A stretch of 64,000 nucleotides of DNA. Origin: Candidatus Iainarchaeum sp. (GTDB lineage: Archaea; Iainarchaeota; Iainarchaeia; Iainarchaeales; UBA10191). The notes beneath the pieces were generated by a model that worked only from the letters and a program-made list of their open reading frames with translations, did no database searches and was not told where the DNA came from. Location: the NCBI GenBank assembly GCA_030649735.1, contig JAUSFL010000044.1:14038-78037 (forward strand), given 5' to 3'. Positions 26,911 to 55,310 of the stretch are shown here, piece by piece (the stretch's first letter is position 1; every line of letters starts with the position of its first letter). A program made the position numbers and the translations under genes.

Positions 26911-26921
26911 AACTTTAGAAA

Positions 26922-27356
26922 TTGAAAGTTTGCGTGGGAAAATTAATGGATAATTTTCGGGTTGCTGTAAAAGCATTGATTTTGGACGACGAAAACAATT
27001 TGCTGCTTGTCAGGCGAAGCCATGATGACAAAGTGGCCGCCGGGCTTTGGGAAATTCCTGGCGGAAGGCTGGAGCTTGGCGAAAGCCCTTTTGATGGATT
27101 AAAGAGAGAAGTGATGGAAGAAACTGGAATTCCAATAGATATTGGGGCTCCAGTAAACGTGCAGCATTTCACAAACACGGACAAGGTTGTAATAACAATG
27201 ATTATTTTCAAATGCAAGGCGCTTTCAAAGGAAGTAAAGCTTGTTGACGGAGAGCTTTCAGAATTTGGCTGGGTGAAAATTCCTGAAGCAAAAGCCAAAA
27301 TTACAAAATACTTCCATAAGGAAATAGATATTCTGGAAAAAATGGCTGGTGTTTAG
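26922..27356 (+). CDS. Nudix hydrolase
   Basis: Canonical Nudix box GGRLELGESPFDGLKREVMEETGI. Start may be the ATG at 26946. Confidence 0.8.
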   Translation: MKVCVGKLMDNFRVAVKALILDDENNLLLVRRSHDDKVAAGLWEIPGGRLELGESPFDGLKREVMEETGIPIDIGAPVNVQHFTNTDKVVITMIIFKCKALSKEVKLVDGELSEFGWVKIPEAKAKITKYFHKEIDILEKMAGV

Positions 27357-27358
27357 AA

Positions 27359-34106: not shown

Positions 34107-35192
34107 TCATGAATTCCTGACATACTCCAACGACAAAATGCCGTTAAGTTTTGGGGTTTCTGGATTCCTAATATTTTCCCCTTTAGGCGTATCAGTGCTA
34201 CCCTTCAGCACATCTCTGTCTGTGCTGAATCGAGATATGCCTTGGCGATACAAACTTGCAATATTGAATCCTGCGTTTGCATCGGCATTCTCAACCACCC
34301 CACATTTCGTGCAGTGGAATTCTTTTAGTTTTCTGTTCCTTGCTTCTATATGACCGCACTTACTACACCTTTGCGAAGTATATTGCGGTTCAACATAGGC
34401 AACAGGCACTCCGAACTTTTTGGATTTGTATTCTATCATTTTTTGCAACTGATAAAAACTCCAAGAGTTTATGGAATACCTCTGCTTTCTTCTCATTTTT
34501 GTAGTCTTTCGAATATCTTTCAATTCTTCAAGTACTATAATTGCTTTGCTATTTTGTGCTTCATCAATCAATTTCTTGCTTATCTGGTGATTAATATTCC
34601 TAATGATTCTGCTCTCTCTATCTTTGATTTTCTTAACAAGAGAATGCTTGCCATTCTTTTGAAGTGACCGTCTTATGTTTTTATATTTTGTGTGAATATG
34701 ATTGCACTTCTTACCTAGCTTAAGCACTTTTCCAGTATCAATATTTGAAGCTACAAGGACATGCTTAATTGTATTTCTATCCACACCAATCACTTGCTTT
34801 GGTTTGTATTGACAAGGTTCTTCGTATGAATATGACACATAAGCAAAAGTCTCCCCAATTTCAACTTGGTTTATCTTCTTAAATGAAATATTAAAGCGAA
34901 TTGGAAGTGTTAATTTCAGACAAGGTATTATTATCTCTTTTTTTGTGAATCTAATTCCTTGAGAAGGAACAGTCAGTTTTACTGAATTTACAGTTTTGAT
35001 TGTTTTATTTTTGGCATACTTTCGGAGGATTTGGTTGGCAATCACTGATTTCAAGCCAATATGTTTTACATCTTTGCTTGATAATGTTCTCTCTCTTATT
35101 GCATACTCAGCTATTTTCTTTGCCAAGCTAAGTTCTCTGCTAAAGTTCTGATAATGCTTTATTTTGAGAGTCAATATCAAAAAAGACCACAA
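34107..35192 (-). CDS. tnpB: TnpB (IS200/IS605 OrfB-family), solitary
   Basis: RuvC-I IGVDRN, E in IVLEELK, zinc finger CSKCGH...CTKCG. Only 21 nt separate its stop from the convergent ldcA stop. Confidence 0.85.
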   Translation of the reverse strand: MWSFLILTLKIKHYQNFSRELSLAKKIAEYAIRERTLSSKDVKHIGLKSVIANQILRKYAKNKTIKTVNSVKLTVPSQGIRFTKKEIIIPCLKLTLPIRFNISFKKINQVEIGETFAYVSYSYEEPCQYKPKQVIGVDRNTIKHVLVASNIDTGKVLKLGKKCNHIHTKYKNIRRSLQKNGKHSLVKKIKDRESRIIRNINHQISKKLIDEAQNSKAIIVLEELKDIRKTTKMRRKQRYSINSWSFYQLQKMIEYKSKKFGVPVAYVEPQYTSQRCSKCGHIEARNRKLKEFHCTKCGVVENADANAGFNIASLYRQGISRFSTDRDVLKGSTDTPKGENIRNPETPKLNGILSLEYVRNS

Positions 35193-37063: not shown

Positions 37064-37116
37064 AAAAACTTGTTTTTTAACAGTTTCCTTCCACTATTTT
37101 TTTGAAAAGAACCGCT

Positions 37117-37189
37117 AGCCCCGTAGTATAGTGGCCAAGTATGCCGGGCTTTGAACCCGTTGACGGGAGTCCGAATCTCCCCGGGGCTA
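37117..37189 (+). tRNA. tRNA-Gln (anticodon UUG)
   Basis: Acceptor AGCCCCG/CGGGGCT, anticodon loop CTTTGAA, T arm GGGAG-TCCGAAT-CTCCC, discriminator A, no encoded CCA. Confidence 0.8.
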
Positions 37190-37253
37190 TTAGCCAAAAG
37201 TTAGTAGCCTCTTTCCTCGTTTCTTTTAAAGTCCGAGGAAGGAGGTTATTAAC

Positions 37254-38525
37254 ATGGAAGAAAACGTTTTCGACCCGCATGGTTTGACCAAGCGAATGGA
37301 AGCAGAATTACGAAAGATTTCCTTGCTTCCAGAACCCAATAAATCTCTAATTCTGGATTTTTTGCACAATTACAGGTACAAAAAGAAGTCTTTGAGCTTG
37401 GCCAGGCGTTGTCGTTTGGCAAGCCAGTTTCACTTTTTTGCCAAGCTTTCAGGAAAGCCTTTGAATCCTTTTAGAGAACAGGATGCTCGAAGCTTGGTTG
37501 GCTTGATTGAAAGGTATGAGAATTCTCGAAAGCCTTATTCTTTGCATACTTGGAAAGAAATCGTAAAGAATGTTAAGATTTGGGTTAAATGGGTTAATCC
37601 TGAAGACTACCCTAACGTTTTGTTGAAGTGTAAAGATGTTTTAACAGTCCAAAACCCTTACTCAGACCCTAAAAGAAAAGCCAGTCTTGAGGATTTCTTG
37701 ATTACTGACGAAACCTTCCTGAAGCTTTTGAATGTAGCCAAAGACCAACAAAAAGCCATTCTAGCCATTGGATTTGGCTGCGGTTCAAGAACTGGAGAGC
37801 TCTTGGGTTTGCGTAGAAAAGACTTGAAATTCAATCCTGACGGAACAATATCGCTTTCTTTTCTTGAAAGCAAAACTTTTCCCCGAGAAAATATTTTATT
37901 AAGTCCAGACTTATCCTGTTACGTGCGAGAATGATTTGAAAAAAGCCCGTTGAAAAGCCAGAATGACTTCTTTTTCTGCACTGTCAACGGCCCGCCAAAA
38001 CCACTATCTCAAAACGCTCTTGGAATAATCCTAAAACGCCTGGCTGTCAAAGCCGGCTTAGGAAAATGGAAGAAAGTCAAGTCAAGCAATGGCATTTGGT
38101 ATTCTCACTATCAAGGCCAAAGAATCTATTTCACTAAATTCCGGCGTTCTGCAGCAACTTGGGCTTTAAAAAACTTGAAAAGCCACGCCTTAGCTGGCAA
38201 AAGAATCTGGGGTAACGAAGCTTCAAGCATGATTAAAATTTACTCTGGATTAGTTTCTGAAGACGCTAACGAAGCTTACAGGGAAGCTTTAGGTTTAGCA
38301 CAACCAACTCAAGTCGAAAACATTCTGAAGCCTAAAACCTGCTTCAAATGCCATACAATGCTTTCTCCAACTCAAAGCCTTTGCCCAAACTGTAAAATAG
38401 AAACAGACACTTCAAAATTAATAGATACTCAATTACTGAAAGAAGCAGAAATGACAGCCTTAAGGGAAGAAATGAAAATGCTCCAAACAGCACTAGCGCA
38501 AATAACCCTAAAAATGCAAAGTTAG
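37254..38525 (+). pseudogene. int: Tyrosine recombinase/integrase interrupted by one in-frame TGA (37932-37934); N- and C-parts in the same frame
   Basis: Core-binding N-domain; catalytic box GCGSRTGELLGLRRKDL (Arg) upstream of the stop; KFRRSAATW and KIYSG (Tyr) downstream. Junction reads YVRE*FEKSPLKSQ; the stop is a single transition from TGG (Trp). Strong SD AGGAGGT 8 nt upstream. Confidence 0.75.
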
Positions 38526-38532
38526 GCACTAC
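38522..38532 (+). repeat. Dispersed element copy (11/12) supplying the TAG stop of the integrase
   Basis: CAAAGTTAGGCACTACG; the stop codon is at 38523-38525. Confidence 0.7.
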
Positions 38533-38785
38533 GCCGGAACTAAAAAAGCAATAAAAAAGCTTCAAAAGCTAAGAAAAACAGTAAAAATAATGATTGCGCC
38601 AATCAAAGCAAAATAATGTTACAAAAAAAGGAATACGAGCTGAAAGAAACAACCTATTGGTTGAAAGGAGGGAAAATCCAGCTAAAAATTTCCCCCGAAT
38701 AAAAGATTATTCTTAGAGTGTGGATCCAAATCAATAAGCTCGCTCATTAAATCTTCAATTTTTTTGACAATCATTTTCAAGATTA

Positions 38786-39691
38786 TTATTGATTCCATTT
38801 CCTTTGCGTTTCTATTTTAGCGTGTAGTTTAAACTTTTTTCTGAATTGATTAATTTTTTCTTGAAAATCTTTTGGGTAGGTCTTAGATTTCTCGTTGAAT
38901 AAAAATTTTAAATATCCTACTTTTTGTGGATTTACTCCTATTAATTGGGCCAGTGTAAAGTCACACATGAATGGGTTATCGGATGCTAGCGCCCAATTGC
39001 AATTTATTTTGGTTCCAAACAGCGGTCCATTCCCCTCCATGCCTAGATAGCCATCAATTATTGAATAATTTGGATACGCTTTCTTGATTAAACTGGCCAA
39101 ATTATAATGAATTAATTTAATACTTTGCAAGTATTCTTTTCCTTTTAAGGTGTGTTTTCTCAAGCCATGAATTTTCACTCGATCTTCTGGTTTGATTAAT
39201 GGCATTACAAAGTTTTTGGTTGAACTTGTCATAATAGCGTAATCATGTGACTTTGGAACTGTCATTGATATCAAAATATCATAATCTAGAAAAGTCCGAT
39301 TAATTCTAACTTTATCCCACCCATAAATGGTTTTAACTGGGTGGGAGAAATATTCTGAGTCCAAATTTAGATCAACAAAAGATGCTCCGTGTTTTTGAAT
39401 GATGTCCCAAACGCCAAATTTTTTGAGTGTTGATTTGGTAGTAAGCCCTTGTTGCCAGGACTCGCCGCTTCCTTCAGCCACTGTAATTTTAGATGGGTGG
39501 TGTTCTGTTAAGATTTGTAAAACAGTGTCTAGCGATTCTGCAGAGGTATCTGCTAGTTGGGTATTGCAAGAAGTAAAATTTGGTTTTATAAAAATAGATT
39601 TATCCCGTATTTTGTCGTCTGAGAATAGTTTTGGAACTATTGAACGTATGTTTTCAACTCTGTTTTTGCCGCCAGTCAACAAAATTTTCAT
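38786..39691 (-). CDS. DUF362-family protein
   Basis: IFIKPNF... and overall DUF362-like pattern; first gene of a minus-strand pair with the kinase. Confidence 0.45.
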   Translation of the reverse strand: MKILLTGGKNRVENIRSIVPKLFSDDKIRDKSIFIKPNFTSCNTQLADTSAESLDTVLQILTEHHPSKITVAEGSGESWQQGLTTKSTLKKFGVWDIIQKHGASFVDLNLDSEYFSHPVKTIYGWDKVRINRTFLDYDILISMTVPKSHDYAIMTSSTKNFVMPLIKPEDRVKIHGLRKHTLKGKEYLQSIKLIHYNLASLIKKAYPNYSIIDGYLGMEGNGPLFGTKINCNWALASDNPFMCDFTLAQLIGVNPQKVGYLKFLFNEKSKTYPKDFQEKINQFRKKFKLHAKIETQRKWNQ

Positions 39692-40371
39692 GCATTCACT
39701 TTAATTAATTTTGGGTGGTTATAATTTGCATTGTTTATAACTAAATTGGCTGCTTTTTTTGGGTGGTTTTTTCTAAGGTACCATTGTTGGGCTGGTTTGT
39801 GCCAATGGTTCCACCGAAATATTACTTCTTTTCTGGAAATTTTTCTCACAATTGGCTCTCTTTTAAGTTGCCGTTCAAACGAGCATGAAAATGGAATGTC
39901 TAAAAAAATTCTGAACGCCGGTATCTTGCTAAATTCCTTTTTTGATAGAAAAACGCCCTCAACGATTAAAATTGATTCTTTTTTGACTTGTATTTTTTCC
40001 TTTTTTTTCTTGGTTTTATTGTTAAATATTAAGGATTCTTTTTCTAGTTTGCCTTTCTGAATGAATGTTGTTAGAATTTTTTTTATGGTTATAAAATCAA
40101 ACCATTGGCTATAATATGCTTTCCAGGAAGATTTTCCGTTTCTGATTCTCTTGGTTTCGGTTTTCAAAAAGTCATCCACCCGTAATTGGGTGGATTTTAT
40201 CGCCTTGCTGTAAAGGCTTTTTTTTAGATTGCGGGCAAAGTATGTTTTTCCGGATGCGTCTATTCCGTCCACAAAAATAATGGTTTTCCCACTCTTCAAA
40301 AATGAGTTTACTACCATTGTCATTATTGAATCTGTTTTCCTATTTGGCCAATTCTGTTGGGGCATAGACAT
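39688..40371 (-). CDS. P-loop nucleoside/nucleotide kinase-like protein
   Basis: Walker A VDGIDASGKTYFARNL, ~200 aa. True start probably a few codons downstream of 40371. Confidence 0.5.
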   Translation of the reverse strand: MSMPQQNWPNRKTDSIMTMVVNSFLKSGKTIIFVDGIDASGKTYFARNLKKSLYSKAIKSTQLRVDDFLKTETKRIRNGKSSWKAYYSQWFDFITIKKILTTFIQKGKLEKESLIFNNKTKKKKEKIQVKKESILIVEGVFLSKKEFSKIPAFRIFLDIPFSCSFERQLKREPIVRKISRKEVIFRWNHWHKPAQQWYLRKNHPKKAANLVINNANYNHPKLIKVNA

Positions 40372-40405
40372 TTAAAGAATATAATCATTAATAAAAGCTT
40401 CCGAA

Positions 40406-41749
40406 TTGAATGATTCTATGCAAAAAAGATTGACGGAGAAAATCATACAAGTTGTTCTGAAAGATTTGATTCATCAGCCCACCAATAGTAAAAGCCGCGC
40501 TGAATTGATTTTAGACTGCTTGTTTGAAGGAAGAAAGGGGATTAGCTGGGATTTTCGTTGCGATTTGTATTTCTTTTTTCTGAAAACGATTGTTACTAAA
40601 ATGATGAAAGAGAACCGGGAGCTCATTGATACTGTGAAAAAAGGTTACTGCGATTATTCTATTTTTAAAAAAGCGCTTAACAAGGCCCTCAAACTTTATC
40701 TTACCAGTATTGTGGAATATGGAATCACAACTCCCCAAAAATTTAGCTTTCCATTCCTTGTGGAATTTGAACTCACTAATAAGTGCAATTTGGCGTGTAA
40801 ACATTGTTATGCAAATGCTGGTAAAGAGCTGGCTGATGAAATTAATACTCAAGAAGCAAAAGAAATCCTTAACCAGCTAAACAATATAGGTGTTCCAATA
40901 GTCTGTTTCACTGGCGGAGAGCCCTTTCTAAGGGCAGACTTCTTTGAATTACTTGAACACTCTAATAAAATAGGCCTCTTGACTGTTATAACTAGTAATG
41001 GAACCTTGATTACAAAGGAAAGTGCAGCCAGACTCAAAGAATTGCAAGTGGAATATATTAGAATCAGCTTGGACAGTGCAACCCCTAAAACGCACGATTG
41101 GCTAAGGGGAATGCCAGGAGCCTACGAGCAAACCATTCAAGGAATAAAAAATTCTATCCAAGCTGGAATCAAAACCGGAGTCACTACAGTTTTGATTCAA
41201 GAAAACTCGTCAGAAATGGAACAAATGATAGAACTTTTGAGCCAATTAGGGTGTTCAGATTTTACTGTGTGCAGGTTGTTTCCATTAGGTAAAGGAAGTT
41301 CGTTGCAAAATAGTTTGCTTAACAAAGAAGAATTGAGTAAAGTGGAATCTCGCATTTCGGCAAAAGCAAAAGAGCACCCTAATCTTTTGATGAATCCTTT
41401 GACGCTGGAAGGCAGAATCCATTCAAAAAAAGACATGCTACGGAAAATAACAGACATGATTGGAGGCTGCCCTGCCGGATTAAACGTATGCGCCATTACT
41501 CCTAAAGGGGAAATAAAGCCTTGCGCGCTAATGTCTATAACCGCGGGGGATTTTAAAAAACAAAAGTTTGAAGAAGTCTGGAAAAACAGTCGGTTATTTA
41601 ATGAACTTCGGGATCGCTCGCTGCTTAAAGGAAAATGTTCCGCTTGCGAATTCAAATTTTCGTGCGGTGGTTGTCGTGCAACCGCATATGGTTATACTGG
41701 AGATTACCTTGAGACAGACCCCATCACATGCATGTTACGTATAAAATGA
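40406..41749 (+). CDS. Radical SAM enzyme with C-terminal SPASM domain and ~115-aa N-terminal extension
   Basis: CNLACKHC (CxxxCxxC) and a SPASM Cys cluster (CPAG...C...CSACEFKFSCGGCRA). Confidence 0.8.
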   Translation: MNDSMQKRLTEKIIQVVLKDLIHQPTNSKSRAELILDCLFEGRKGISWDFRCDLYFFFLKTIVTKMMKENRELIDTVKKGYCDYSIFKKALNKALKLYLTSIVEYGITTPQKFSFPFLVEFELTNKCNLACKHCYANAGKELADEINTQEAKEILNQLNNIGVPIVCFTGGEPFLRADFFELLEHSNKIGLLTVITSNGTLITKESAARLKELQVEYIRISLDSATPKTHDWLRGMPGAYEQTIQGIKNSIQAGIKTGVTTVLIQENSSEMEQMIELLSQLGCSDFTVCRLFPLGKGSSLQNSLLNKEELSKVESRISAKAKEHPNLLMNPLTLEGRIHSKKDMLRKITDMIGGCPAGLNVCAITPKGEIKPCALMSITAGDFKKQKFEEVWKNSRLFNELRDRSLLKGKCSACEFKFSCGGCRATAYGYTGDYLETDPITCMLRIK

Positions 41750-41770
41750 CTCCGCTAATGGGATGATAAT

Positions 41771-43123
41771 GTGAAAAGAATACAGAACCTGATTGGAAGC
41801 GCTATAATCAAATCCGCGTTATTTGATTTGTCCAAACCAATAGGGGTTTTAAAGAAAAGCCGTGCTGAACTCATTTTAGACAGACTCTTTGAAGAAAAAA
41901 AAGAGATTGATTGGGACATTAAATGCCGAATTTATTTTTTTCTCTTGAATCAAATAATGGCTAAAATGATTAAAGAAAATAAGATCACGATGCAAACTGC
42001 AAAGAAGTTTTTTCAGGATTACCCTATTTTTAGAAGAATACTCAATAAAACGCTTAAACTATTTCTTCAGAGCATAACTGAATACGGGATTACTATGCCG
42101 CAAAAACTTAGTGCGCCATTATTGGTAGAATTTGAGTTGACTAATAAATGTAATCTTGCATGCAAACACTGTTATGCAAATTCTGGAAGCAAATTTGCAA
42201 AAGAACTGGATTTAAGAGAAGTAAAAGAAATCCTGAACCAAATCAACCAAGCCGGCGTTCCTTTAGTGTGCTTTACTGGCGGCGAACCACTTCTAAGGCC
42301 GGACTTCTTTGACATTTTGAGCCATGCTAAGCGCATTGGTCTTGTTACTATTGTTACAACCAATGGGACTCTAATCACAAAAGAAAAGGCCAGAAAGTTC
42401 AAAGAGCTTGGAACAGATTATATCCGCATTAGTTTGGATGGGGCAAGTATAAAAACACATGATTGGCTGCGTGGAATTCCTGGCGCGTATAAAAGAACCG
42501 TTCAAGGAATCAGAAATTCCATTGAAGCAGGAAACAAAACCGGAATAGGCACAGTTCTAATTCAAGAAAACGTGCATGAACTTGAAAACTTGATTGATCT
42601 GGCAGCTCAATTAGGTTGCACTGACATAAACGCAATTCCGCTCATTGAAAGCGGTCGGGCAAAAAGCACTTTGAATAAAGAGATTCATGAAATGAGCAAT
42701 GAACAAAAAAAGAAAAACGAAGAGTTGATAGTTGCAAAAGCCAAAGAATATGAGGGAAAAATGCTGCTTAATTTTTTGGATTTAGATCATATTCGCAGGG
42801 TAAAAGGTTCATCAAAGCATTTTGTTGGTTGGGCTCAAGGTGGTTGCGCTGCAGGGCGAACAGTTTGTGTCATAAACCCCAATGGAGAAATTCGGCCATG
42901 TATCACTCTTAGATTGAATGTCGGAAGCCTGCAAAAACAAAAGTTTGTAAAGATTTGGAAAAATTCCAAAATAATGGAAGAACTTAAAAACCGTTCTCTT
43001 GTAAAAGGAAGTTGCGGCAAATGTGAATCCAAGTATACTTGTGGGGGATGCCGCGCTGCAGCTTATGATAAATTTGGGGATTATCTTGAATCAGACCCTG
43101 GTTGCTATGTGCGATACTTTTGA
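41771..43123 (+). CDS. Radical SAM/SPASM enzyme, paralog of 40406-41749
   Basis: Same architecture (CNLACKHC; C-terminal CGKCESKYTCGGCRA); recognisably similar along its length. Confidence 0.8.
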   Translation: MKRIQNLIGSAIIKSALFDLSKPIGVLKKSRAELILDRLFEEKKEIDWDIKCRIYFFLLNQIMAKMIKENKITMQTAKKFFQDYPIFRRILNKTLKLFLQSITEYGITMPQKLSAPLLVEFELTNKCNLACKHCYANSGSKFAKELDLREVKEILNQINQAGVPLVCFTGGEPLLRPDFFDILSHAKRIGLVTIVTTNGTLITKEKARKFKELGTDYIRISLDGASIKTHDWLRGIPGAYKRTVQGIRNSIEAGNKTGIGTVLIQENVHELENLIDLAAQLGCTDINAIPLIESGRAKSTLNKEIHEMSNEQKKKNEELIVAKAKEYEGKMLLNFLDLDHIRRVKGSSKHFVGWAQGGCAAGRTVCVINPNGEIRPCITLRLNVGSLQKQKFVKIWKNSKIMEELKNRSLVKGSCGKCESKYTCGGCRAAAYDKFGDYLESDPGCYVRYF

Positions 43124-43145
43124 GATTGGGAAAAAGCGTGATTGA

Positions 43146-44360
43146 ATGGAATTATATATTGAAAGAGCAAAAGGAGTTTGGCTATACGGCCAGAATAATG
43201 AAAAGTATTTGGACGCGTGTGCTGGGACGTTTAACATAATTCTTGGGCATGGGGAAGAACGAGTAATGGACGCCGTCCAAGAACAATTGGGTAAAATGGT
43301 TCAATATTCTTCTTCTTGGAAAAGCCATTTAGTTGAAGATTTCTCAGCAAACCTTTTGTCAATATCTCCAAAAAATTTGGACTCCTGTTTTTGTAAAGTT
43401 ACTGGGGGAAGTACTGCAAACGAAGTGGCCATTAGAATGTTGGCAAAAAATTTAAATAGAAAAAAAGTGATCTTGATGGAAGGCAGCCATCATGGGAATA
43501 CAATTTTTCTTTCAAACAATCAATCTGTTTTGAATGAAAATAATAAAATCTTTGTGAAAATGCCTAAACTTTCCTTTCCATCCATGTCTAGCATGAATGA
43601 TTCGGCATGGGCAAAATCCGCTGCTGATTTGGACTTTTTATTTAAAAAACACTCAAAAGAAGCGGCTTGTTTCATAATTGAACCAATTCAAGGCCGAGGT
43701 GGAAATCTTGTACCCCCAAAGTCATTTTTTAAAACGGTTTCAGAATCAGCTTCAAGGTATAGTATACCCATAATTGCCGATGAAGTGCAAGTGGGTGTTG
43801 GCCGAACTGGAAAGTTTTTTGGAAGTGAAGCTGTTGGCTTGTTACAACCAGATGTAATTGTCTTGGCCAAAGGAATCACTGGGTGTGGTTTTCCTTTAGG
43901 CGTAATTTTATATGACTCAACGTATGGAAAATTGGAATCAGCAAAAGACGGTTTTACTTTTGGATCCAATCTAGTTTCAGTTGCGGCAGCCAAAAAAACA
44001 GTGGAAATAGTGAGCGATCCAAAGTTTTTGCAGGAAATCCAATTTAAAGGAGAATATTTGCGAGCCAAGCTTGAAAAGCTGCAACTTGAGCACAATTCTT
44101 TGGAAGATATTCGCGGCATTGGGTTGTTTTTTGGCATAAAACTGAAGTCTGGAAAAGAATTTCCAAGCACTGAACGCATGATTGCAGTTCTTGCTAAAAA
44201 TGGGGTAATCTGCCGGTCAAGCGAAAACGTTCTTAAAATTAGACCGCCCCTTGTAATAACTTTGGAACAAATTGATTTTTTATGTAAATCATTGGAGGTG
44301 GCTCTGAATGAAACAGAAAGAAAAACTAAATTGGCAAATGGAATTCTTGCGCATGGGTAA
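43146..44360 (+). CDS. Class-III (omega) PLP-dependent aminotransferase
   Basis: IADEVQVGVGRTGKFFG, PLP-Lys region VLAKGITGCGFPLG, ~400 aa. Confidence 0.8.
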   Translation: MELYIERAKGVWLYGQNNEKYLDACAGTFNIILGHGEERVMDAVQEQLGKMVQYSSSWKSHLVEDFSANLLSISPKNLDSCFCKVTGGSTANEVAIRMLAKNLNRKKVILMEGSHHGNTIFLSNNQSVLNENNKIFVKMPKLSFPSMSSMNDSAWAKSAADLDFLFKKHSKEAACFIIEPIQGRGGNLVPPKSFFKTVSESASRYSIPIIADEVQVGVGRTGKFFGSEAVGLLQPDVIVLAKGITGCGFPLGVILYDSTYGKLESAKDGFTFGSNLVSVAAAKKTVEIVSDPKFLQEIQFKGEYLRAKLEKLQLEHNSLEDIRGIGLFFGIKLKSGKEFPSTERMIAVLAKNGVICRSSENVLKIRPPLVITLEQIDFLCKSLEVALNETERKTKLANGILAHG

Positions 44361-45297
44361 ACTCCTTCGAAAAGAAATCACTTCATTGAAACAGTTTAAC
44401 GAACGGCAAAAAATTTCTGGAATTAGCAAATCAGGAGATCCCCAATTTAAAGTGGATAATATTGCTGAAAACTTTCTTTTAAAACAAATAAAAAAGATTT
44501 CCAAAAAAACAAGCATTGCTTATTTTTCAGAAGATAAAGGCCTTGTTCGTTTTGCAAAAAACCCAGAGTATTTGCTGATTTGCGACCCAATTGATGGATC
44601 AAGACCGTTCTCAGCTGGTTTTGAGTCAAATAACTTTTCGATTGCACTTGCAGAAACAAATGGTAAAGACCCCACGGATTTAACATTTGCTCAAATAGTC
44701 TCGGGTTTTTTATTGGAACTGAAAACCGGAGAATATCTTTTTGCGGAAAAAGGAAAAGGAGTTATTCAAAACGGAGCTAAATTTCAACCTAAACCCACTC
44801 GTTTTAATAGCAATAACTTGAACCAATTGTTTTGGAGTTTTGAATTCAATGGAACCCCCTCAAGAATTGTTCATGAAATACTGGGTGATTTGATTGATAC
44901 TTCAGCAAATAAGGGGGGCATTTTTGTTTTCAATTCTGGAAGTTATTCAATTTCAAGAGTGATTACTGGCCAACTTCACGCATATATTGACATTGGAAAT
45001 TTGGTTTTGAAGAAATTTCCCGAACTTGAAAAAGAATTCAAATCTGTAGGTTCGGGATCAATTCTGCACTTGTTCCCGTATGACATTGCAGCCTCCTACA
45101 TTATTGCAAAAGAAGCGCACATAAGCATTGCAGATGCTGCAGGAAATTCATTGGAATCTCTTTCCCTAACAGATTTATCTGCACAAAATCAAACTTCTTG
45201 CGTATGCGCGCTGAATGAAAAGCTATCCAAGAAACTAATTAACGAGATTTCTGTAAACCTAGAAAAAAAACGAAAACAAATCGCTGAAGAACAGTGA
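44308..45297 (+). CDS. Inositol-monophosphatase-family (IMPase/FBPase-like) phosphatase
   Basis: LICDPIDGSRPF (DPIDGT-type motif). Start probably 44338 or 44353. The 3' end overlaps the convergent gene by 59 bp. Confidence 0.7.
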   Translation: MKQKEKLNWQMEFLRMGKLLRKEITSLKQFNERQKISGISKSGDPQFKVDNIAENFLLKQIKKISKKTSIAYFSEDKGLVRFAKNPEYLLICDPIDGSRPFSAGFESNNFSIALAETNGKDPTDLTFAQIVSGFLLELKTGEYLFAEKGKGVIQNGAKFQPKPTRFNSNNLNQLFWSFEFNGTPSRIVHEILGDLIDTSANKGGIFVFNSGSYSISRVITGQLHAYIDIGNLVLKKFPELEKEFKSVGSGSILHLFPYDIAASYIIAKEAHISIADAAGNSLESLSLTDLSAQNQTSCVCALNEKLSKKLINEISVNLEKKRKQIAEEQ

Positions 45298-45874
45298 ATA
45301 AAGCAGCTATTGCGAGTAGAAGCAACACAACGCCAGCCATTTGGCTATCGAATAACAGCAAGATAAAAATTAGAACGAATAACATGCATCTTTCTCCTCT
45401 TTGAATTAACCCATGCATATTGTCAAGTTGTTTTCGCCAGTTAGGGTTGCTGTATGATGCATGCGACTTGGCAAAACTGGTTAAAAAAACACCCAAAATG
45501 CAAGTAAAAATTATATAATTCCAAGAGATAAAAAAACCAAAAAGGTTGACAGAATTCAAATTTAAACTCCACAATCCAACTAACAAAAGAAAGTCAACCA
45601 GGATATCAGATAACCCATCAAAATAATCGCCAAAAGGAGTTTGTTTTTTCAAATATTTGGCTATACTCCCATCAAAAATGTCAAACAGAAAAGAAAGCGA
45701 AAAAAGAATACCTCCTAAAAGAATTTGCTTCTCAACTAAGCTTAGAAAACCGCTAAACCCAAGCACAACTGCCAGTAAAGTCCATTGATTAGGGGATAAA
45801 GGCACGATCGAAAGCATTCTCCCAACAGATTGTTCTAACTCAACCAATTGCTTATCAAATAACCCTTTAATCAT
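45239..45874 (-). CDS. CDP-alcohol phosphatidyltransferase
   Basis: DGSIAKYLKKQTPFGDYFDGLSD matches D-G-x2-A-R/K-x8-G-x3-D-x3-D; multiple TM helices. Confidence 0.8.
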   Translation of the reverse strand: MIKGLFDKQLVELEQSVGRMLSIVPLSPNQWTLLAVVLGFSGFLSLVEKQILLGGILFSLSFLFDIFDGSIAKYLKKQTPFGDYFDGLSDILVDFLLLVGLWSLNLNSVNLFGFFISWNYIIFTCILGVFLTSFAKSHASYSNPNWRKQLDNMHGLIQRGERCMLFVLIFILLLFDSQMAGVVLLLLAIAALFTVLQRFVFVFFLGLQKSR

Positions 45875-46622
45875 TTGTAATGCCGCCCAAAAACAAAATA
45901 AATTCTGGAATTTTAGTAATCTTTGGAAATAGTTGCCCTGTCTTTTGTTGGTATATTACATATTCTTTCCCAAATCTTTGAATCAAATCTTTCTCCTCAA
46001 TTGAAATCCACATCAAAGCAGTTAAGCACACTGCTAAAAACGATAATAAACCAAATAAGCTCGGACTAATAATGAAAAGTCCAAAACAAACCACGACTGC
46101 TATTCCCAAAAAGGGATGGCGAATAAACCGAAAAACCGAGTTCTGCTTCAATTTAAAACTAGAAGGAAAAAATGAGCCCATAACATATATTTCTTCAACA
46201 GAAAAGACTTTTACTGCCTTCTTCCAAATTAACAATGCAATCAAGAATAAGATAAAACCCGCAACGAAATTCACTGGGTGAATTTGTTTTATATTTCCAG
46301 CAAAAAAAGGAATTAGTAAAGCAGAATACCACAAACACATTCCAAAAAAGAAAAAAGGCAGTGCATGACGATAATTTAGTCTTTGATCGCCCGTCTTTTT
46401 TGAAAAACCATGCGCTTTCTTCCAGAGCAAAAAACTAAGCGCGCAATAAACTAACGATTGTAAAAACGGTATAAAATCAAATTTTATAATCGCGTTTGGT
46501 ACAAATGCAAATAGAAAAGCAAAAATAAAAAGCGCAAACAACAAAAAGTAATATCTTGGAGGAGAAATCTCCGGAACTAAATCAAATAAACGCAATTTTT
46601 CCTCACGAATATTCACGGGCAA
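45867..46622 (-). CDS. ICMT/PEMT-family membrane methyltransferase (isoprenylcysteine carboxyl / phospholipid methyltransferase-like)
   Basis: RFIRHPFLGIA...IEEKDLIQRFGKEYVIYQQKTGQLFP signature; polytopic. Confidence 0.65.
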   Translation of the reverse strand: MPVNIREEKLRLFDLVPEISPPRYYFLLFALFIFAFLFAFVPNAIIKFDFIPFLQSLVYCALSFLLWKKAHGFSKKTGDQRLNYRHALPFFFFGMCLWYSALLIPFFAGNIKQIHPVNFVAGFILFLIALLIWKKAVKVFSVEEIYVMGSFFPSSFKLKQNSVFRFIRHPFLGIAVVVCFGLFIISPSLFGLLSFLAVCLTALMWISIEEKDLIQRFGKEYVIYQQKTGQLFPKITKIPEFILFLGGITND

Positions 46623-47614
46623 ATAACCACCTTTACCGCAGTTGATTCTCGTGCAAACCTTCTTGATGCAAAATCATATCCAAGAACTTCAAAAGCTTCC
46701 CGATAATCTTTCAAACCAAACTTGTGAGTAATAATGTCTTTGCCCCTAATTCTTGGCAGTAACTTGATCGCTTGTTTAAATGTACCAGAGTCCATATTGA
46801 CTCCAAGAATATCCACGTTCTTTTGAGCAATCAAAAAAGGTTCAATCTTCTCAACATGCCCTGGACTCATTCCAAATAACACTAACTTGCCAGCAGGCTT
46901 GACCAAGCGAACCCCCAGCTCAAACGCTTGCCCAGAAGAATCAATCACAAAATTAAAACCATTCGATTCATCCCCCTGGCAAATTGTTATCCCAAACTTT
47001 TGAGCAAAAGCACACCTAAACTCGGACTTTTCAACGCCAAAAACTTTTATTCCCCTCAATCTAAAGAGTTCAGCCCAAATCAACCCAGTAGGACCAAGAC
47101 CAATAATACACGCTGTTTGATTCTTTTTGATGTTAAGCCGATTAAAACCATTCAATATACACGCCAATGGCTCAACCAAAGTAGCTTCTTCAAAGCTAAT
47201 ATTATCAGACAACTTATACACATTACTTTCTCTGATTTTCACAAAAGCAGCAAATGCCCCGTTGATATTAACACCCAACTCACCATTTCCGCCAGTACCT
47301 AAATTTTTACACAAATTCTGCTTTCCATCAAGACAAAACTCACAATTCCCGCAAGTTAGTGTTGGATCAGCAACTACCATATCCCCAATTTTAAATCGCC
47401 TTGCTTTATTCCCTGTTGAAGTAATTACGCCGGAAAATTCATGACCCAGAACAATATTATCTAAACAACCCATAATCCCTGAAACAATCTTTAAATCAGA
47501 CCCGCAAATTCCGCAACAATTAACCCTAATCAGAACCTCATCTGGTAAAACGGCTGGCATGGGAAATTGGCTCACTTCCAGACTACTCTTTTTAGACAAA
47601 CACAATGCATCCAT
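46613..47614 (-). CDS. Zinc-dependent medium-chain alcohol/polyol dehydrogenase
   Basis: GHEFSGVI, Cys-rich structural-zinc loop (CGNCEFC), Rossmann IGLGPTGL. Start taken at MDALCL; the ORF track extends to 47668. Confidence 0.82.
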   Translation of the reverse strand: MDALCLSKKSSLEVSQFPMPAVLPDEVLIRVNCCGICGSDLKIVSGIMGCLDNIVLGHEFSGVITSTGNKARRFKIGDMVVADPTLTCGNCEFCLDGKQNLCKNLGTGGNGELGVNINGAFAAFVKIRESNVYKLSDNISFEEATLVEPLACILNGFNRLNIKKNQTACIIGLGPTGLIWAELFRLRGIKVFGVEKSEFRCAFAQKFGITICQGDESNGFNFVIDSSGQAFELGVRLVKPAGKLVLFGMSPGHVEKIEPFLIAQKNVDILGVNMDSGTFKQAIKLLPRIRGKDIITHKFGLKDYREAFEVLGYDFASRRFARESTAVKVVICP

Positions 47615-48033
47615 AAACATGGAAATAAGGTTGTTACTGAATAAAAAAATAGCACATTCTAATGCCAAAATTAGTGTATAATGATTTGATAATTATTATA
47701 GTGGGTCTTTTAGATATCTTCTTTCAAAATAATCAATTAATTGTAAATTACAAGTTTAGAACTATGATTACATTTGTTTATGATAAAAAATTGTTAAAAC
47801 ATCAACTGAAAATCCAAAATATGATTAATTAAGTCTGGATTGAACTTCGAATTTCTTGTATATTCTATGGGTTTTTAAGTGTAGGAATTGCCTTGCTTTT
47901 AGCTGATTTCTAGTAATCCTTGTTGTTTTTTCTATTAATTAGACTAGATTAGCTTTATTCTTGGCAAAAAGAAATAATTAAGCTTATTTGCTGGTTTTAG
48001 TTTTTGCAGTTTCTTTTTTTCTGGGTTATTTTT

Positions 48034-48044
48034 TGTAGTGCCTA
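48034..48044 (-). repeat. Dispersed element copy (11/12, reverse) in the repeat-dense non-coding block
   Basis: TTTTGTAGTGCCTAT. Confidence 0.65.
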
Positions 48045-48198
48045 TGTCTCTATTTTTGCTTTTGTTTTCGGGACATTTACAAGACATTTTTTGGGTTTGC
48101 GGGACAATTAATTGGCAATTTTATAGTTGATTTTTTTGATTCGTATTTTTTTTGCCGACATTTTCCCGACATTTTTTCACTTTTCCCGACACCCATTT

Positions 48199-48210
48199 TG
48201 TAGTGCCTAA
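48199..48210 (-). repeat. Dispersed element copy (exact, reverse) in the repeat-dense non-coding block
   Basis: TTTTGTAGTGCCTAA. Confidence 0.8.
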
Positions 48211-48296
48211 TGCTGCTTTCAATTTTCCTATTTTCTGCTTAGTGCCATTTTTGTGCCATTTTTTTACTTTGCGTGTCATTCAAAGCTTGCATCTTC

Positions 48297-48307
48297 TGTA
48301 GTGCCTA
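48297..48307 (-). repeat. Dispersed element copy (11/12, reverse) in the repeat-dense non-coding block
   Basis: CTGTAGTGCCTAT. Confidence 0.65.
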
Positions 48308-48482
48308 TGCTCCGCTTTATTCACTTGCTTGCCAGTAACTGAGTTAACTCATGCTTAAATAATTCAATGTAGAAGGTATGTCTAGAGAGTTTTCAAAACT
48401 GCTTTATAAAAGCAGAAGTAAGGACTTCTCATGAGAAACCCGACAACGACAATAAGAAGGCCGGAACAGAAATTAATGCAAG

Positions 48483-48671
48483 GTGAAGAAATTGGAACTA
48501 CAGCAAACTCTTACAGTTAGGAAGAATGAGCAAATGACGGCAAAGCAAGTGGCCTTGTTGCTGGCGAGAAAGACAGATTTTGAGTTAAAGCGAGAGTTTC
48601 CGGTTTTTTGGGAATTGCTTGCAATAAAAAGCAAAAGTTGGAAAAGTGTTGATGATGAGTTTGAATATTGA
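48483..48671 (+). CDS. Small hypothetical protein
   Basis: 62-aa ORF at the edge of the repeat block. Confidence 0.3.
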   Translation: MKKLELQQTLTVRKNEQMTAKQVALLLARKTDFELKREFPVFWELLAIKSKSWKSVDDEFEY

Positions 48672-48882
48672 GTTGAGAATACCAAAGCAAGTAGTGCCTA
48701 ACTGTTTTCTCTGCCTCTCAAACAAAAGAAAACGCAAAAAAATGGTGTTCCGTACAACCCAAAGAAGATGGGTTTGCAAAGAATGCCTTGACGCGCTTGG
48801 AGAAAACCAAATACAACAAATGCTTGAAAAAATTCCTTTGGCTGAAGATATAATATTCAGAAAGCCAAGCATCAATTTTTAG
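48646..48882 (+). CDS. Small zinc-ribbon protein
   Basis: CFLC...CKEC. Confidence 0.35.
   Translation: MLMMSLNIELRIPKQVVPNCFLCLSNKRKRKKMVFRTTQRRWVCKECLDALGENQIQQMLEKIPLAEDIIFRKPSINF
48691..48701 (-). repeat. Dispersed element copy (11/12, reverse) between small ORFs of the element
   Basis: AAGTAGTGCCTAACTG. Confidence 0.65.
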
Positions 48883-48890
48883 TGATTGCT

Positions 48891-49241
48891 TCAGACGCAG
48901 ATTATTTTTACTGTTTTTAAGTCTATTAGCGGGGTTCTTTTTTCTGTTTCGTTGATGATTTCGAACATTTTTTCAACGTTTTCTGGAACGTTTGCTTCAT
49001 TGATGTCTTTTTTTGAAGTGTTTTTTCTTGTTAGGTATTCTTGTGCGAAAGAGCGGGATATTGACTTGACTTTTTTGAAGTCTATGGTTATTTGTTTCTC
49101 TTTCATTTTCTCTAAATCATCAAAGAAGTTGCTGACTAGGTCTCTTAAAGCAAGGTTTTCGGAAATTATTTTTGCAATTTCTATCTTACTTGATAAAGTC
49201 ATAAATGTCCACTTCTTTTGCCGGATAGGGTATTCTGACAC
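48891..49241 (-). CDS. STAS-like (DUF4325-like) small protein, partner of the upstream GHKL ATPase
   Basis: ITIDFKKVKSISRSFAQEY pattern, 116 aa; overlaps the ATPase 3' end. Confidence 0.4.
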   Translation of the reverse strand: MSEYPIRQKKWTFMTLSSKIEIAKIISENLALRDLVSNFFDDLEKMKEKQITIDFKKVKSISRSFAQEYLTRKNTSKKDINEANVPENVEKMFEIINETEKRTPLIDLKTVKIICV

Positions 49242-49995
49242 TTATTAGGGTGCCTTGTAACCTATAATTGTCTCGGAGTTTATATAATTTTGTTGGTTCA
49301 TTGCCTTTAAAGTAGGCTGCCCCATTTCCTGACACAATAAGCAGCTCTCCCGAAAGGCCTTTTGTGAAAAGCTTTAAGTTTGAGCCTAAGCCAAAACCAC
49401 GCTCTTTCCCTTTGGTTGAAAGGCCATTAATTGCCTGGATTATGCTTTCAGCGTCCTCAAAAACCATTCCTTTTTTTGCAAAACTACCGGGAATTGTTAT
49501 TCCGTCATCAAAAAAGCATATTTCAACAAATCCTTTCTTTTCATACTTTTGGGCCATTACAAAAGCATTCTTGAATTCTGAATGCTGATAAATGTTATCA
49601 ACAAGCTCGTTTATCAAATATTTGAAAGCATTTTCCCCACCATACTCTTTGCCATTATTGTGCAGTTTGAAAATCTGTTCTAGAAACTTTTCTGAATCCT
49701 TTTCTGCAACTTTTGGCGGCAGGCCTATTATTGGAATGTAAGTTTTTAATCCATTCTCAACCTTAAACTCACCAATAACCAAAGAAATATAGTTTGCGGC
49801 ATTCTGATTTGCTGGGGGAACATACTTGATTTTCTTGCTGTTTTCCTTAATGAACACGCCTAAAGGAAGCAAGGTTGTGGGATAAAGCCAGCTAACAGTT
49901 TGCAAATTAAGAACTTTTGTTTCAATGCTGGAATTCTTAAAATTACAGAAAATAAGGTAATTGTTCAATTGATTAGGAAACTCCAACTCAGCCAT
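49186..49995 (-). CDS. GHKL-superfamily ATPase (histidine-kinase-like ATP-binding domain) with N-terminal unknown region
   Basis: N box ELVDNIYQHS, G1 DDGITIP, G2 GFGLGSNL. Confidence 0.6.
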   Translation of the reverse strand: MAELEFPNQLNNYLIFCNFKNSSIETKVLNLQTVSWLYPTTLLPLGVFIKENSKKIKYVPPANQNAANYISLVIGEFKVENGLKTYIPIIGLPPKVAEKDSEKFLEQIFKLHNNGKEYGGENAFKYLINELVDNIYQHSEFKNAFVMAQKYEKKGFVEICFFDDGITIPGSFAKKGMVFEDAESIIQAINGLSTKGKERGFGLGSNLKLFTKGLSGELLIVSGNGAAYFKGNEPTKLYKLRDNYRLQGTLISVRIPYPAKEVDIYDFIK

Positions 49996-50232
49996 AAAGC
50001 AATTATCGCTAAAAAGAGAATAAAAACCTAAGCAGGCGAGAATTCCACTGGAAAAAAGCGCCAGAAACGTTTTACGCAGAAAAAATTATTAACAACTTAC
50101 TACTTCTATGTCAACTACTAAAGGATAAATAAAAGAAGCGAGTTTTAAGCATTGAGGGAATTCTTACTTTTGACCTTTATTCTCCCCGGGGCTATTAAGA
50201 CCTGGGGCTTTTTTGAACAGCAGTTCAAAATT

Positions 50233-53378: not shown

Positions 53379-55310
53379 TTATTTTTTTGAAATTGTTTTT
53401 TCAAATATTTTCTGCAGTTCTTTCGCGTCTGCCTTGCCTTTTGCAGCGCGCATTGCCTGCCCGACAAGGAAATTTAGGGCTTTTTCGCTGCCGTTCGCAA
53501 AGTCTTGCGCGGCCTTCTGGTTTTCTGAAGCAATTTTTTTACAGATTTCTTCAAGTTCTTTTCCGCCAAGCTTTGAAAGCAGGCCTTGCGAGCTCAAATA
53601 CTGCAAGGGGTCTATCTTTTCGCTTACAATCCGAATCATTGTTTCTTTGGCGATTTTTTCATTGATTTTTCCAGCCTGCAGAAATTCAAGCAGGGAAATT
53701 ATTTTTTTTGCGGGAATTTCGGCCTCGGCAAGGGACAAATTGCCGTGGTTGAGTATTGCCAAGAGCTCGCGCGTGAGGAATTTTGCCGAAAGCTTTGCGT
53801 CAATTTTTTTGGAAACTTCATCAAAGAGCTTTCCGAGCTCGAAGTCCGAGACTATCACGCGCGCTTCATATTCTGTAAGGCCTTTTTCTTTCACTATGCG
53901 TTTTATTTTTTGCTCTGGCAGTTCTGGCAGTTCTGCCTTGATTTTCTTGATTTTTTCTTCAGAAACTTCAACAACCGGCAGGTCTGGCTCGAAAATATAT
54001 CCGTAATCCTCTTCGGTTTCTTTTGTTCGAAGGCTTCTTGTCTTTCCGGTTGTTTCATCAAAAGACCTTGTTTCGCGAATTGGCTTTCCGCCAGCCGCTA
54101 TTAATTTCGTTTGCCTTTCAACTTCAAACTTCAAAGCGTCTTCAACTGCCTTAAAGCCAGTCACGTTTTTCACTTCGACTCTTTCAAAGCCCTGCATTGA
54201 AACATTTGTGTCTGCCTTCATTACGTTTTTTCCCAAGACAAAAACATTCAAGTAATTCAATAAATTCAGGAGCAAGTCCAGGAATTCGCGCGCTTCTTCA
54301 GGGGTTTCCATGTCCGGGTCAGTGACTATTTCAAGCAATGGGATTCCCGAGCGGTTGTAGTCAATGAGCGAGTAATTGCTTGACGAGATTCCTGCCTCGT
54401 GCACTAATGCTGCCGGGTCTTCTTCCAAGTGAACTCTTGTAATGTTGATTGTTTTTCCATTTTTTAAATTCAGGCTGCCTTTTTCCCCTAATGGAATTTC
54501 AAACTGCGTGATTTGGAAGTCTTTCGCCAGGTCTGGATAAAAGTATGTTTTCCTGCTGAAAAAGAATTCCTTGTTGATTTTGCAGTTCAATGCCAGCGCT
54601 ACCTTTAATCCCATTTCAACTGCCTTTTCGTTCAATGAAGGCTTGCTGCCTGGCATTCCGAGGCAGATTTCGCAGACTCTGGAGTTTGGCTTGTCTTCAA
54701 CTTCTGCGCCAGAGCCTGAAATCGCTTTTTCAATGCCTTCTTTTTCGGCAATGACTTCATCGCTTGAAATTTCCGCAATTTTGTAATTGTCAATTGCCTT
54801 GAGGAATTCTTTTTTTGAAATTATTATTCCTGAATAATGGTTTCCGGCATTGAATGAAATCAATTCATTTTCCAAAAGCCTTTTGTCAATTATTTTTTTC
54901 ACGCCTTCAATTGTTGGTGGAACTGCCCCTACAGAGCAGCCGGTGAATTTCAGCACTTCTTCAGGAGTTGCTGGCCTTATTTTTTCTCTATTCAATGCTT
55001 CTGAAGATTTTTCCAAATCCAGTTTTCTGTCTCCCGGAAGAATGAAAATGACCGGGTTTCCTGAACTGACGCAAACCATTGCTTTTGCTATCTGGCTTGC
55101 CTTGAGGTTTCTTTCCCTTGCGGAGTCAGCGCAGCGCATTGCGAGGCCATGCTGCACGTACTTGAAGTCAATTCCTTTATTTTCCAAATAATTCTTGACC
55201 CAAGGCGCTTTCATTGCCTGTGTCGGGCATTTGCAGAAAAGCTTTGTTTGAGTGTTCAATTGAATATGGATTTCAAGGCCCATCATTGGCGTAAGGCTTT
55301 TCTGGCTCAT
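53379..55310 (-). CDS. gatB: Asp/Glu-tRNA amidotransferase subunit B with an inserted YbaK/ProX-type deacylase domain
   Basis: GLEIHIQLNT..KLFCKCPTQ, then ~170-aa insert (aa ~32-205; nt ~54696-55217), then PNSRVCEICLGMPGSKP..ALALNC and the rest of GatB including the C-terminal YqeY tail. The insert aligns to YbaK. Confidence 0.85.
   Translation of the reverse strand: MSQKSLTPMMGLEIHIQLNTQTKLFCKCPTQAMKAPWVKNYLENKGIDFKYVQHGLAMRCADSARERNLKASQIAKAMVCVSSGNPVIFILPGDRKLDLEKSSEALNREKIRPATPEEVLKFTGCSVGAVPPTIEGVKKIIDKRLLENELISFNAGNHYSGIIISKKEFLKAIDNYKIAEISSDEVIAEKEGIEKAISGSGAEVEDKPNSRVCEICLGMPGSKPSLNEKAVEMGLKVALALNCKINKEFFFSRKTYFYPDLAKDFQITQFEIPLGEKGSLNLKNGKTINITRVHLEEDPAALVHEAGISSSNYSLIDYNRSGIPLLEIVTDPDMETPEEAREFLDLLLNLLNYLNVFVLGKNVMKADTNVSMQGFERVEVKNVTGFKAVEDALKFEVERQTKLIAAGGKPIRETRSFDETTGKTRSLRTKETEEDYGYIFEPDLPVVEVSEEKIKKIKAELPELPEQKIKRIVKEKGLTEYEARVIVSDFELGKLFDEVSKKIDAKLSAKFLTRELLAILNHGNLSLAEAEIPAKKIISLLEFLQAGKINEKIAKETMIRIVSEKIDPLQYLSSQGLLSKLGGKELEEICKKIASENQKAAQDFANGSEKALNFLVGQAMRAAKGKADAKELQKIFEKTISKK

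Follow-up and report, generated by a model that had tools for sequence, protein, structure and literature searches.

Tandem radical SAM/SPASM enzymes of the Gms lineage in a putative lipid head-group cassette on a mobile element of a DPANN archaeon

Gms, the synthase of glycerol monoalkyl glycerol tetraethers (GMGT; also H-shaped glycerol dialkyl glycerol tetraethers, H-GDGT), was characterised in 2024 by two groups as an AhbD homologue bearing an N-terminal COG4001 extension of ~100 residues, which in AlphaFold models is helical and has a hydrophobic lipid pocket with a tunnel to the active site (Li et al. PMC11186832; Garcia et al. PMC11214058). In the structural model of Gms, a segment that bridges its radical S-adenosylmethionine (SAM) core and its SPASM domain forms a beta-hairpin inserted into the substrate pocket. 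Here we describe two tandem genes, rSAM1 (type 1; 40418-41749, + strand) and rSAM2 (type 2; 41771-43123, +), in a 64,000-nucleotide stretch of a Candidatus Iainarchaeum sp. genome (contig JAUSFL010000044.1; the whole stretch is hereafter the window). Their products share with Gms/Hbs a layout in four parts: a helical N-domain of ~100-115 residues comes first, then the radical SAM core with CxxxCxxC near residue 123, the bridging region, and finally SPASM with its seven conserved cysteines. An association with DUF362 is likewise common to the pair and to Bathyarchaeia-type Gms. Unlike Gms, the two are tandemly duplicated as two conserved types, form a separate branch, have a bridging region that is ~25-35 residues shorter and devoid of the beta-hairpin (PTHF segment), lie in what reads best as a head-group cassette rather than beside gmm, grs or tes, and are carried on an integrated element of a DPANN genome.

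Comparison with other described systems gives partial likenesses. AhbD/AhbC and NirJ2/NirJ1 resemble the pair in the CX2CX5CX2C pattern of SPASM, in a core that is ~35% identical, in their tandem paralogs and in being the best curated hidden Markov models, but they have no N-domain, and the window pair reaches about half of the cut-off score and has no tetrapyrrole context. Tes/GDGT-MAS (PDB 7TOL/7TOM) is likewise a radical SAM enzyme with auxiliary clusters, acting on lipids and forming C(sp3)-C(sp3) bonds; however, only the N-terminal part of its radical SAM core aligns with ours (phmmer E 3.6e-10; Foldseek template modelling (TM) score ~0.4) and its domain composition is different. Calditol synthase (Cds) and HpnJ, encoded in lipid gene clusters, use radical SAM chemistry to modify a polar group bound to lipid and serve as conceptual precedents, but the analogy is one of function only, no specific sequence relationship having been detected. 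The likeness of anSME to the window core is structural and at the level of the superfamily (TM 0.56-0.59, 16-18% identity), with no N-domain, and BtrN, with a single-cluster twitch domain and no N-domain either, is distant from the pair.

Architecture of the pair and its kinship with Gms

A preliminary description of this DNA, made from the sequence alone, had proposed tandem paralogous radical SAM/SPASM enzymes with N-terminal extensions of ~115 residues, and this holds. Both open reading frames (ORFs) are intact, and their products (443 aa and 450 aa) are 54% identical over the full length (E 1e-175). The rSAM1 ORF spans 40406-41749 (+) and could open with TTG at 40406, the likelier start being the ATG at 40418; the protein read from that ATG (P0001) is a 100% match to a deposited "radical SAM protein" from a metagenome-assembled genome of Candidatus Diapherotrites (DPANN). 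It comprises an N-domain (40418-40756), the radical SAM core, a short bridging region and SPASM, and rSAM2 has the same architecture. In both proteins, Pfam Radical_SAM covers residues 122-278 (E ~1e-31, 109-111 bits) and SPASM residues 355-418 (31.5-34 bits), each above its gathering score. The CxxxCxxC motif of the SAM cluster (C123/C127/C130) and the C-terminal cysteines C351, C369, C407, C410, C416, C419 and C438 are invariant in 66 family members, with the GGE motif and every cluster-ligand cysteine retained in the window pair. The AlphaFold2 model of full-length rSAM1 has a mean predicted local distance difference test (pLDDT) score of 90.4 and a predicted TM score (pTM) of 0.90. The pair belongs to the radical SAM/SPASM subfamily with a three-cluster core.

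Profile classification, which the preliminary description had recommended, recovered SPASM but gave no assignment to PqqD or to the recognition element (RRE) of ribosomally synthesised and post-translationally modified peptides (RiPPs), and every NCBIfam model scored below its cut-off. The nearest models were NirJ2 and AhbD (E 1e-72 to 1e-83), the two proteins reaching 272 and 243 bits with TIGR04545 and 280 and 257 bits with TIGR04055, against a cut-off of 500; a genuine AhbC-AhbD fusion (P0009) cleared the AhbD/NirJ2-type cut-offs in the same search. The earlier suggestion of a BtrN- or anSME-like enzyme did not fare well, as neither is among the 25 best NCBIfam models of either protein, and Gms and AhbD/NirJ are the nearest relatives. 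Among solved structures, the neighbours (SkfB, SuiB, PqqE, BlsE and anSME) align with the core only, at 16-20% identity.

Approximately 115 residues precede CxxxCxxC in each protein, and these extensions are conserved between rSAM1 and rSAM2 (54% identity), as had been noticed at the outset. The extension is real but not special to the pair, being common to 91 of the 120 best homologues, each ~470 aa long with CxxxCxxC near residue 125. When the N-domain of the clade described below was compared with those of 91 Gms-type proteins, HHalign returned a probability of 98.7% (E 3e-16), and homology to COG4001 follows through these Gms-type proteins, whose N-domain carries that annotation in the Gms papers. 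The bulk composition is also alike, with a hydrophobic fraction of 0.41 vs. 0.42 in canonical Gms N-domains. On sequence grounds, the extension is the helical N-domain of the Gms family, a family trait rather than one specific to the pair. We considered the CxKCG…CxxC motif, present in the N-domain of many Gms, as a distinguishing loss, but dropped it when Gms-type proteins of Methanococci and Thermococcus also proved to be without it.

Residues 1-113 are predicted with confidence to form five helices, in the full-length AlphaFold2 model as well as in one of the domain on its own (pLDDT 85), and the N-domain is predicted to be all-helical, the sole exceptions being isolated bridge residues at positions 22 and 25 of the domain-only model. 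Foldseek found no match to a solved structure when the isolated N-domain was compared with the PDB (best E 4.9), a profile of the N-domain searched against PDB sequences gave nothing significant, and Pfam at E <= 10 on the first ~115 residues returned noise only, with no PqqD or RRE match. The RRE- or PqqD-like domain that the preliminary description had entertained is therefore unsupported, since an RRE requires a beta-sheet.

The ~470-aa family to which the pair is related occurs in Bathyarchaeia, Thermoplasmatota, methanogens, Archaeoglobi, Thermococcus, some DPANN, Acidobacteriota and other bacteria. It is tied to the experimentally characterised Gms by a Methanococci homologue (L056), in which C123, C127, C370, C372, C438, F326, S334 and N351 occupy the published positions of the M. 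okinawensis enzyme (8 of the 9 positions checked). The window proteins are 34-39% identical to the Gms-type proteins of Thermococcus and Methanococci (227-273 bits). Together with the rSAM pairs of loci L001/L002 and L003 and the single copies of L183 and L184, they form a clade of eight sequences. A neighbour-joining tree computed from the core of 81 sequences (200 bootstraps) shows this clade as monophyletic with 100% bootstrap and separates clade and Gms from AhbC/D with 70% bootstrap. Based on this tree and the shared N-domain, we place the clade as a sister or basal lineage of Gms.

The clade is also isolated in searches. Scores in a word-indexed search fell from 457 to ~330 bits past the clade, and in an exhaustive profile search of 1.84 billion representatives (50% identity) the whole clade was one representative at 823 bits, followed by a two-domain fusion at 461 bits and a full-length single-domain relative at 387 bits. 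Among the matches listed in scans of genome and metagenome contigs, there were only canonical Gms/AhbD homologues at 39% identity or less, and among those listed in a scan of viral contigs only weak partial alignments (21-33% identity over 66-198 residues); as the contig scans missed known JGI contigs, they say little on rarity, which rests on the word-indexed and exhaustive profile searches. Judged from these sequences, the pair is a rare, divergent and isolated sister lineage of Gms. The preliminary description had named assignment to a characterised family as the outcome that would go against it, and this came about only by half, the lineage (Gms) being clear but neither orthology nor substrate. 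Outside the clade, the nearest full-length relative is P0122 (387 bits; L185, a 1.8-kb contig); it too has the N-domain, its bridging region is likewise shortened and lacks the PTHF hairpin, and it may be an intermediate form.

Within the clade, type 1 comprises P0001, P0002 and P0004 and type 2 comprises P0003, P0005, P0006, P0007 and P0008, the single-copy loci L183 and L184 having a type-2 copy only. Paralogs of the same genome are 24-33% identical over residues 281-350 vs. 53-77% elsewhere, and the N-domains of the L003 paralogs are 75% identical vs. 38-46% between orthologues. The greater closeness of the L003 paralogs than of orthologues indicates that the front half, N-domain and radical SAM core, undergoes concerted evolution (gene conversion), with a bridging region that appears specialised and paralog-specific.

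The cassette, its DUF362 gene and the element that carries it

The two rSAM genes are part of a nine-gene cassette. Upstream, on the - strand, lie a DUF362 protein (38786-39691; Pfam E 6e-31; 54-56% identical in L001, L003 and L183) and a P-loop kinase of the PRK/uridine-kinase family (39688-40371; Pfam PRK E 2.7e-9), divergently oriented from the rSAM genes. The latter are followed on the + strand by a class-III, pyridoxal phosphate-dependent aminotransferase (43146-44360; Pfam E 9e-77), which is below every NCBIfam cut-off, and by an inositol-monophosphatase-family phosphatase (44308-45297; Pfam Inositol_P E 1.7e-15) with a DPIDGS motif. On the - strand, the cassette continues with a CDP-alcohol phosphatidyltransferase (45239-45874; Pfam E 1.6e-14) displaying the motif D-x2-DG-x2-A[K]-x8-G-x3-D-x3-D, a PEMT/ICMT-like membrane methyltransferase (45867-46622; Pfam PEMT E 3.5e-10) and a Zn-dependent medium-chain alcohol/polyol dehydrogenase (Zn-ADH; 46613-47668; Pfam ADH_N and ADH_zinc_N). 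The P-loop, the DPIDGS and CDP-alcohol motifs and the Zn ligands, all read from the sequences, are intact. The model nearest to the CDP-alcohol phosphatidyltransferase is archaetidylinositol-phosphate synthase NF040950 (92 bits vs. a cut-off of 180), while the Zn-ADH scores best, yet far under the cut-offs, with the models of threonine 3-dehydrogenase and scyllo-inosose 3-dehydrogenase; as aminotransferase, dehydrogenase and transferase are all far below every NCBIfam equivalog cut-off, the head group cannot be named.

Five loci of this kind are known, namely the window, L001/L002, L003, L183 and L184, and the three long ones hold the full cassette: all nine genes recur in L001/L002 and in L003 at 35-65% identity, with gene blocks rearranged in L003. 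Adjacency of kinase, rSAM and aminotransferase genes is found in 5/5 loci, the kinase adjoining an rSAM gene in all and the aminotransferase lying directly downstream of the rSAM gene(s) except in L003, where it is on the opposite strand beside the kinase. Since loci that share only 35-65% identity and are rearranged still keep the cassette whole, its genes are likely linked in function, and it is best read as a conserved unit acting on lipid head groups or their remodelling, in agreement with the lipid head-group context noted initially, which the cassette members confirm. The absence of a Cys-rich precursor ORF nearby, another early observation, was also upheld: of 25 small ORFs from six frames (38500-38800, 40360-40420 and 47650-48900), none is conserved in the four related loci (tblastn best E 0.013), which makes RiPP maturation unlikely. 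At L184, the place of DUF362 beyond the kinase is taken by a gene at 3-371 (-), at the contig end, whose Cys-rich product of 122 aa has a signal-peptide-like segment and a hydrophobic one at the C-terminus.

DUF362 belongs to the same Pfam clan as the nickel-pincer racemase LarA (PMC11770544). Upon searching the cassette proteins by tblastn against all 175 fetched loci, we found a DUF362 homologue beside canonical, hairpin-bearing Gms in four Bathyarchaeia-type loci (L015, L016, L019 and L114); in the three inspected, it is directly downstream of Gms with a gap of 0-3 nt (L015:9725-12148, L019:8388-10805 and L114:9737-12132). These Gms-DUF362 pairs adjoin glycosyltransferases of families GT4 and GT2, or a CobS-like protein and a MobA/IspD-like nucleotidyltransferase. 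From this recurrent coupling, we surmise that DUF362 is probably a partner of Gms-family enzymes generally; in a full-text literature search for DUF362, neither of the Gms papers was among the results. The aminotransferase beside Gms in L121 was judged to be a coincidental ArgD-like housekeeping gene, and those beside homologues without an N-domain are, from their context, presumably HemL genes of heme clusters.

The cassette is the cargo of a 13.0-kb mobile element (37176-50197) integrated at a tRNA-Gln gene of the Diapherotrites (DPANN) genome. The tRNA-Gln gene (37116-37190, +; ARAGORN and Rfam) carries at its 3' end attL, the 17-nt repeat TCTCCCCGGGGCTATTA (37176-37192, +), and a second copy, attR (50181-50197, +), closes the element, with two exact copies in the window vs. 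0 expected by chance. An independent 13,085-bp assembly contig (L088) consists of just this element, and the G+C content is 0.35-0.38 inside vs. 0.40-0.43 in the flanks. Next to attL is a tyrosine integrase (37254-38525, +) in two ORFs of the same frame; the joined product matches phrog_1 across the in-frame TGA at 37932-37934 (E 2e-14), and this stop could reflect a pseudogene, a sequencing error or recoding. Toward attR lie a DUF4325/STAS-like gene of a PHROG family (48891-49241, -) and, overlapping it, a HATPase-like gene (49186-49995, -; phrog_3364 E 1e-41), both absent from the other cassette loci; PADLOC gave only weak matches for the accessory genes, among them one of the HATPase-like protein to a DrmA segment. 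A gene-poor stretch of 1.2 kb inside the element (47669-48890) contains three copies of TTTTGTAGTGCCTA (48031, 48196 and 48294, the third with one mismatch) and T-rich repeats, and may serve in regulation or replication. It also has an ORF of 78 aa with a CxxC…CxxC pattern (48646-48882).

The flanking 50 kb encode housekeeping functions, with no lipid-biosynthesis gene. Elsewhere in the window, two genes (3804-4979, + and 34107-35192, -) are IS605 OrfB/TnpB-like and have a Cas12f1-like TNB domain, and another (61618-63006, -) encodes, in a DPANN genome, a xylanase-type protein of glycoside hydrolase family 10 that matches dockerin weakly. A GatD/GatE pair and a GatA-like amidase, the latter accompanied by a GatB-like protein fused to a YbaK-type tRNA-editing domain, are encoded at 25561-29248 (+) and 53379-56833 (-), both within 30 kb.

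Candidate reactions and their alternatives

What we infer here, and only tentatively, concerns substrate and type of reaction: we lean toward lipid-acting radical enzymes of the Gms lineage that couple hydrocarbon carbons, by the GMGT-type reaction or a variant of it, the two paralogs acting on different lipid species or positions. In this proposal, the N-domain would hold an isoprenoid ether lipid of the membrane, reductive cleavage of SAM would yield a 5'-deoxyadenosyl radical that abstracts hydrogen from an unactivated lipid carbon, and both auxiliary 4Fe-4S clusters would handle the bookkeeping of radical and electrons. The likeliest outcome would be a C-C bond in or between hydrocarbon chains, as in GMGT-type bridging or a variant. 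Since the paralogs differ in the bridging segment, which is the site of the pocket hairpin in the Gms model, they would take two different lipid species or positions.

The other enzymes of the cassette would build, attach and modify the polar head group, the cassette as a whole serving to re-tailor DPANN membrane lipids. In one plausible logic, the dehydrogenase would oxidise a polyol or cyclitol, which would then be transaminated and, by the kinase, phosphorylated; the transferase would couple it to CDP-archaeol, the IMPase-like enzyme would take off phosphate, and N-methylation by the PEMT-like enzyme would follow. This would yield an amino-polyol phospholipid similar to the aminopentanetetrol lipids of Methanospirillum, whose biosynthetic genes are not named in the literature retrieved. 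Such head-group-type neighbours are compatible with an enzyme that acts on the tail, because canonical Gms is also found beside DUF362 and transferases of head-group type.

Several observations weigh against tail coupling by these enzymes. Canonical Gms is monophyletic to the exclusion of the clade with 90.5% bootstrap, so that the clade is not nested in Gms; the mean core distance of the clade is about equal to Gms (1.19) and to AhbC/D (1.26); and neighbour-joining is itself a weakness of the tree. The clade lacks the bridging segment of ~25-35 residues (…STAPQxAR…PTHF…) that bears the Gms hairpin and that all canonical Gms examined possess, the closest (Bathyarchaeia-type) among them, and the rSAM1 model has only a short, low-confidence loop at residues 330-340. 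There is no tes, grs, gmm or lipid-core biosynthesis gene in the 64-kb window, and the operon link to aminotransferase and kinase fits polar-group chemistry equally well.

The alternative that survives best, although we consider it unlikely, is that the N-domain only docks the lipid and that the radical chemistry takes place on its polar head, or on a polyol or sugar linked to lipid. It could be an oxidation to a ketone that feeds the aminotransferase (BtrN-like) or a ring formation or contraction (as with Cds and HpnJ), leading to an amino-polyol or aminocyclitol phospholipid that is then methylated by the PEMT-like enzyme. The class-III aminotransferase and the kinase are invariant neighbours even at single-rSAM loci, but the Zn-ADH of the cassette is already able to supply a carbonyl to the aminotransferase and, with canonical Gms too adjoining DUF362 and head-group transferases, context alone does not point to the head group. 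That the hairpin is lost and the bridging region specific to each paralog implies that the pocket has been remodelled, the core relatives AhbD, AhbC and NirJ work on polar side chains, and Cds and HpnJ are radical SAM precedents on lipid heads (review PMC13459092); yet the kinship of the pair to BtrN, anSME, Cds and HpnJ is no closer than the superfamily. Polar residues R27, E29, D45, E65, Y51 and Y80 of the N-domain are invariant in the clade and unconserved in Gms, which, with eight sequences only, is weak evidence.

It is more doubtful still that the two are ordinary GMGT synthases, i.e. duplicated, fast-evolving DPANN orthologues of Gms, perhaps for two GMGT isomers, with unrelated cargo as neighbours. 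Both fall within the BLAST-style limits of Li et al. (E < 1e-50, identity > 30%, length > 420 aa) and have the N-domain, and the Gms papers report 39 Gms sequences from DPANN as well as two GMGT isomers upon expression of Gms (PMC11186832, PMC11214058). Against these points stand the separate branch outside canonical Gms, the deleted hairpin and the drop in profile score from 823 to 387 bits before the next full-length single-domain relative, while a cassette preserved as a unit in divergent and rearranged loci speaks for functional linkage rather than chance cargo.

Two further readings were already disfavoured. We regard tetrapyrrole side-chain enzymes of the AhbC/AhbD or NirJ1/NirJ2 type as highly improbable: NirJ2 and AhbD do provide the best NCBIfam models and the tandem layout resembles ahbC-ahbD, but 243-280 bits is well short of the 500 that the genuine fusion passes, AhbD is without the N-domain, neither the cassette nor the 64-kb window has heme or siroheme genes, and HemL-like aminotransferases accompany only the homologues that have no N-domain. 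Least credible of all are RiPP maturases with an RRE-like leader-recognition domain and an unannotated precursor, for although the solved core neighbours SkfB, SuiB and PqqE are peptide maturases and the extension sits where an RRE would be, the N-domain is all-helical with no RRE counterpart, no small ORF is conserved in or beside the cassette at any locus, neither protease nor transporter is present, and the characterised member of the family, Gms, acts on lipids.

Meaning for DPANN lipids and for the Gms family

Because the Gms lineage has been known since 2024, the pair does not make a new category; its novelty lies in a rare, duplicated, Gms-derived branch with a remodelled substrate region, placed in a head-group cassette on an integrative element of a DPANN genome. 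The general view is that DPANN archaea rely on their hosts for lipids. We speculate, as an idea less probable than the tail coupling favoured above, that this self-contained, horizontally mobile module lets a lipid-scavenging DPANN cell turn the ether lipids of its host into species of its own, with the rSAM pair and its partner DUF362 running a newly acquired reaction other than that of canonical Gms. Candidates for that reaction are a different C-C cross-link, or one that forms or functionalises an amino-polyol or aminocyclitol head group, e.g. that of the genetically unassigned aminopentanetetrol-type lipids. DUF362 would in that case be an accessory, so far overlooked, of the Gms family at large.

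For the family, the coupling of Gms with DUF362 suggests a missing partner protein in GMGT-type chemistry. Organisms are inferred to make GMGT biomarker lipids from the presence of Gms. A Gms-like branch whose substrate region is remodelled and which sits in a head-group cassette would be a warning that not every COG4001-AhbD homologue should be called a GMGT synthase; the published criteria would probably accept these proteins. For the organism, a mobile lipid-tailoring cassette would offer a concrete route by which DPANN cells edit the lipids they acquire.

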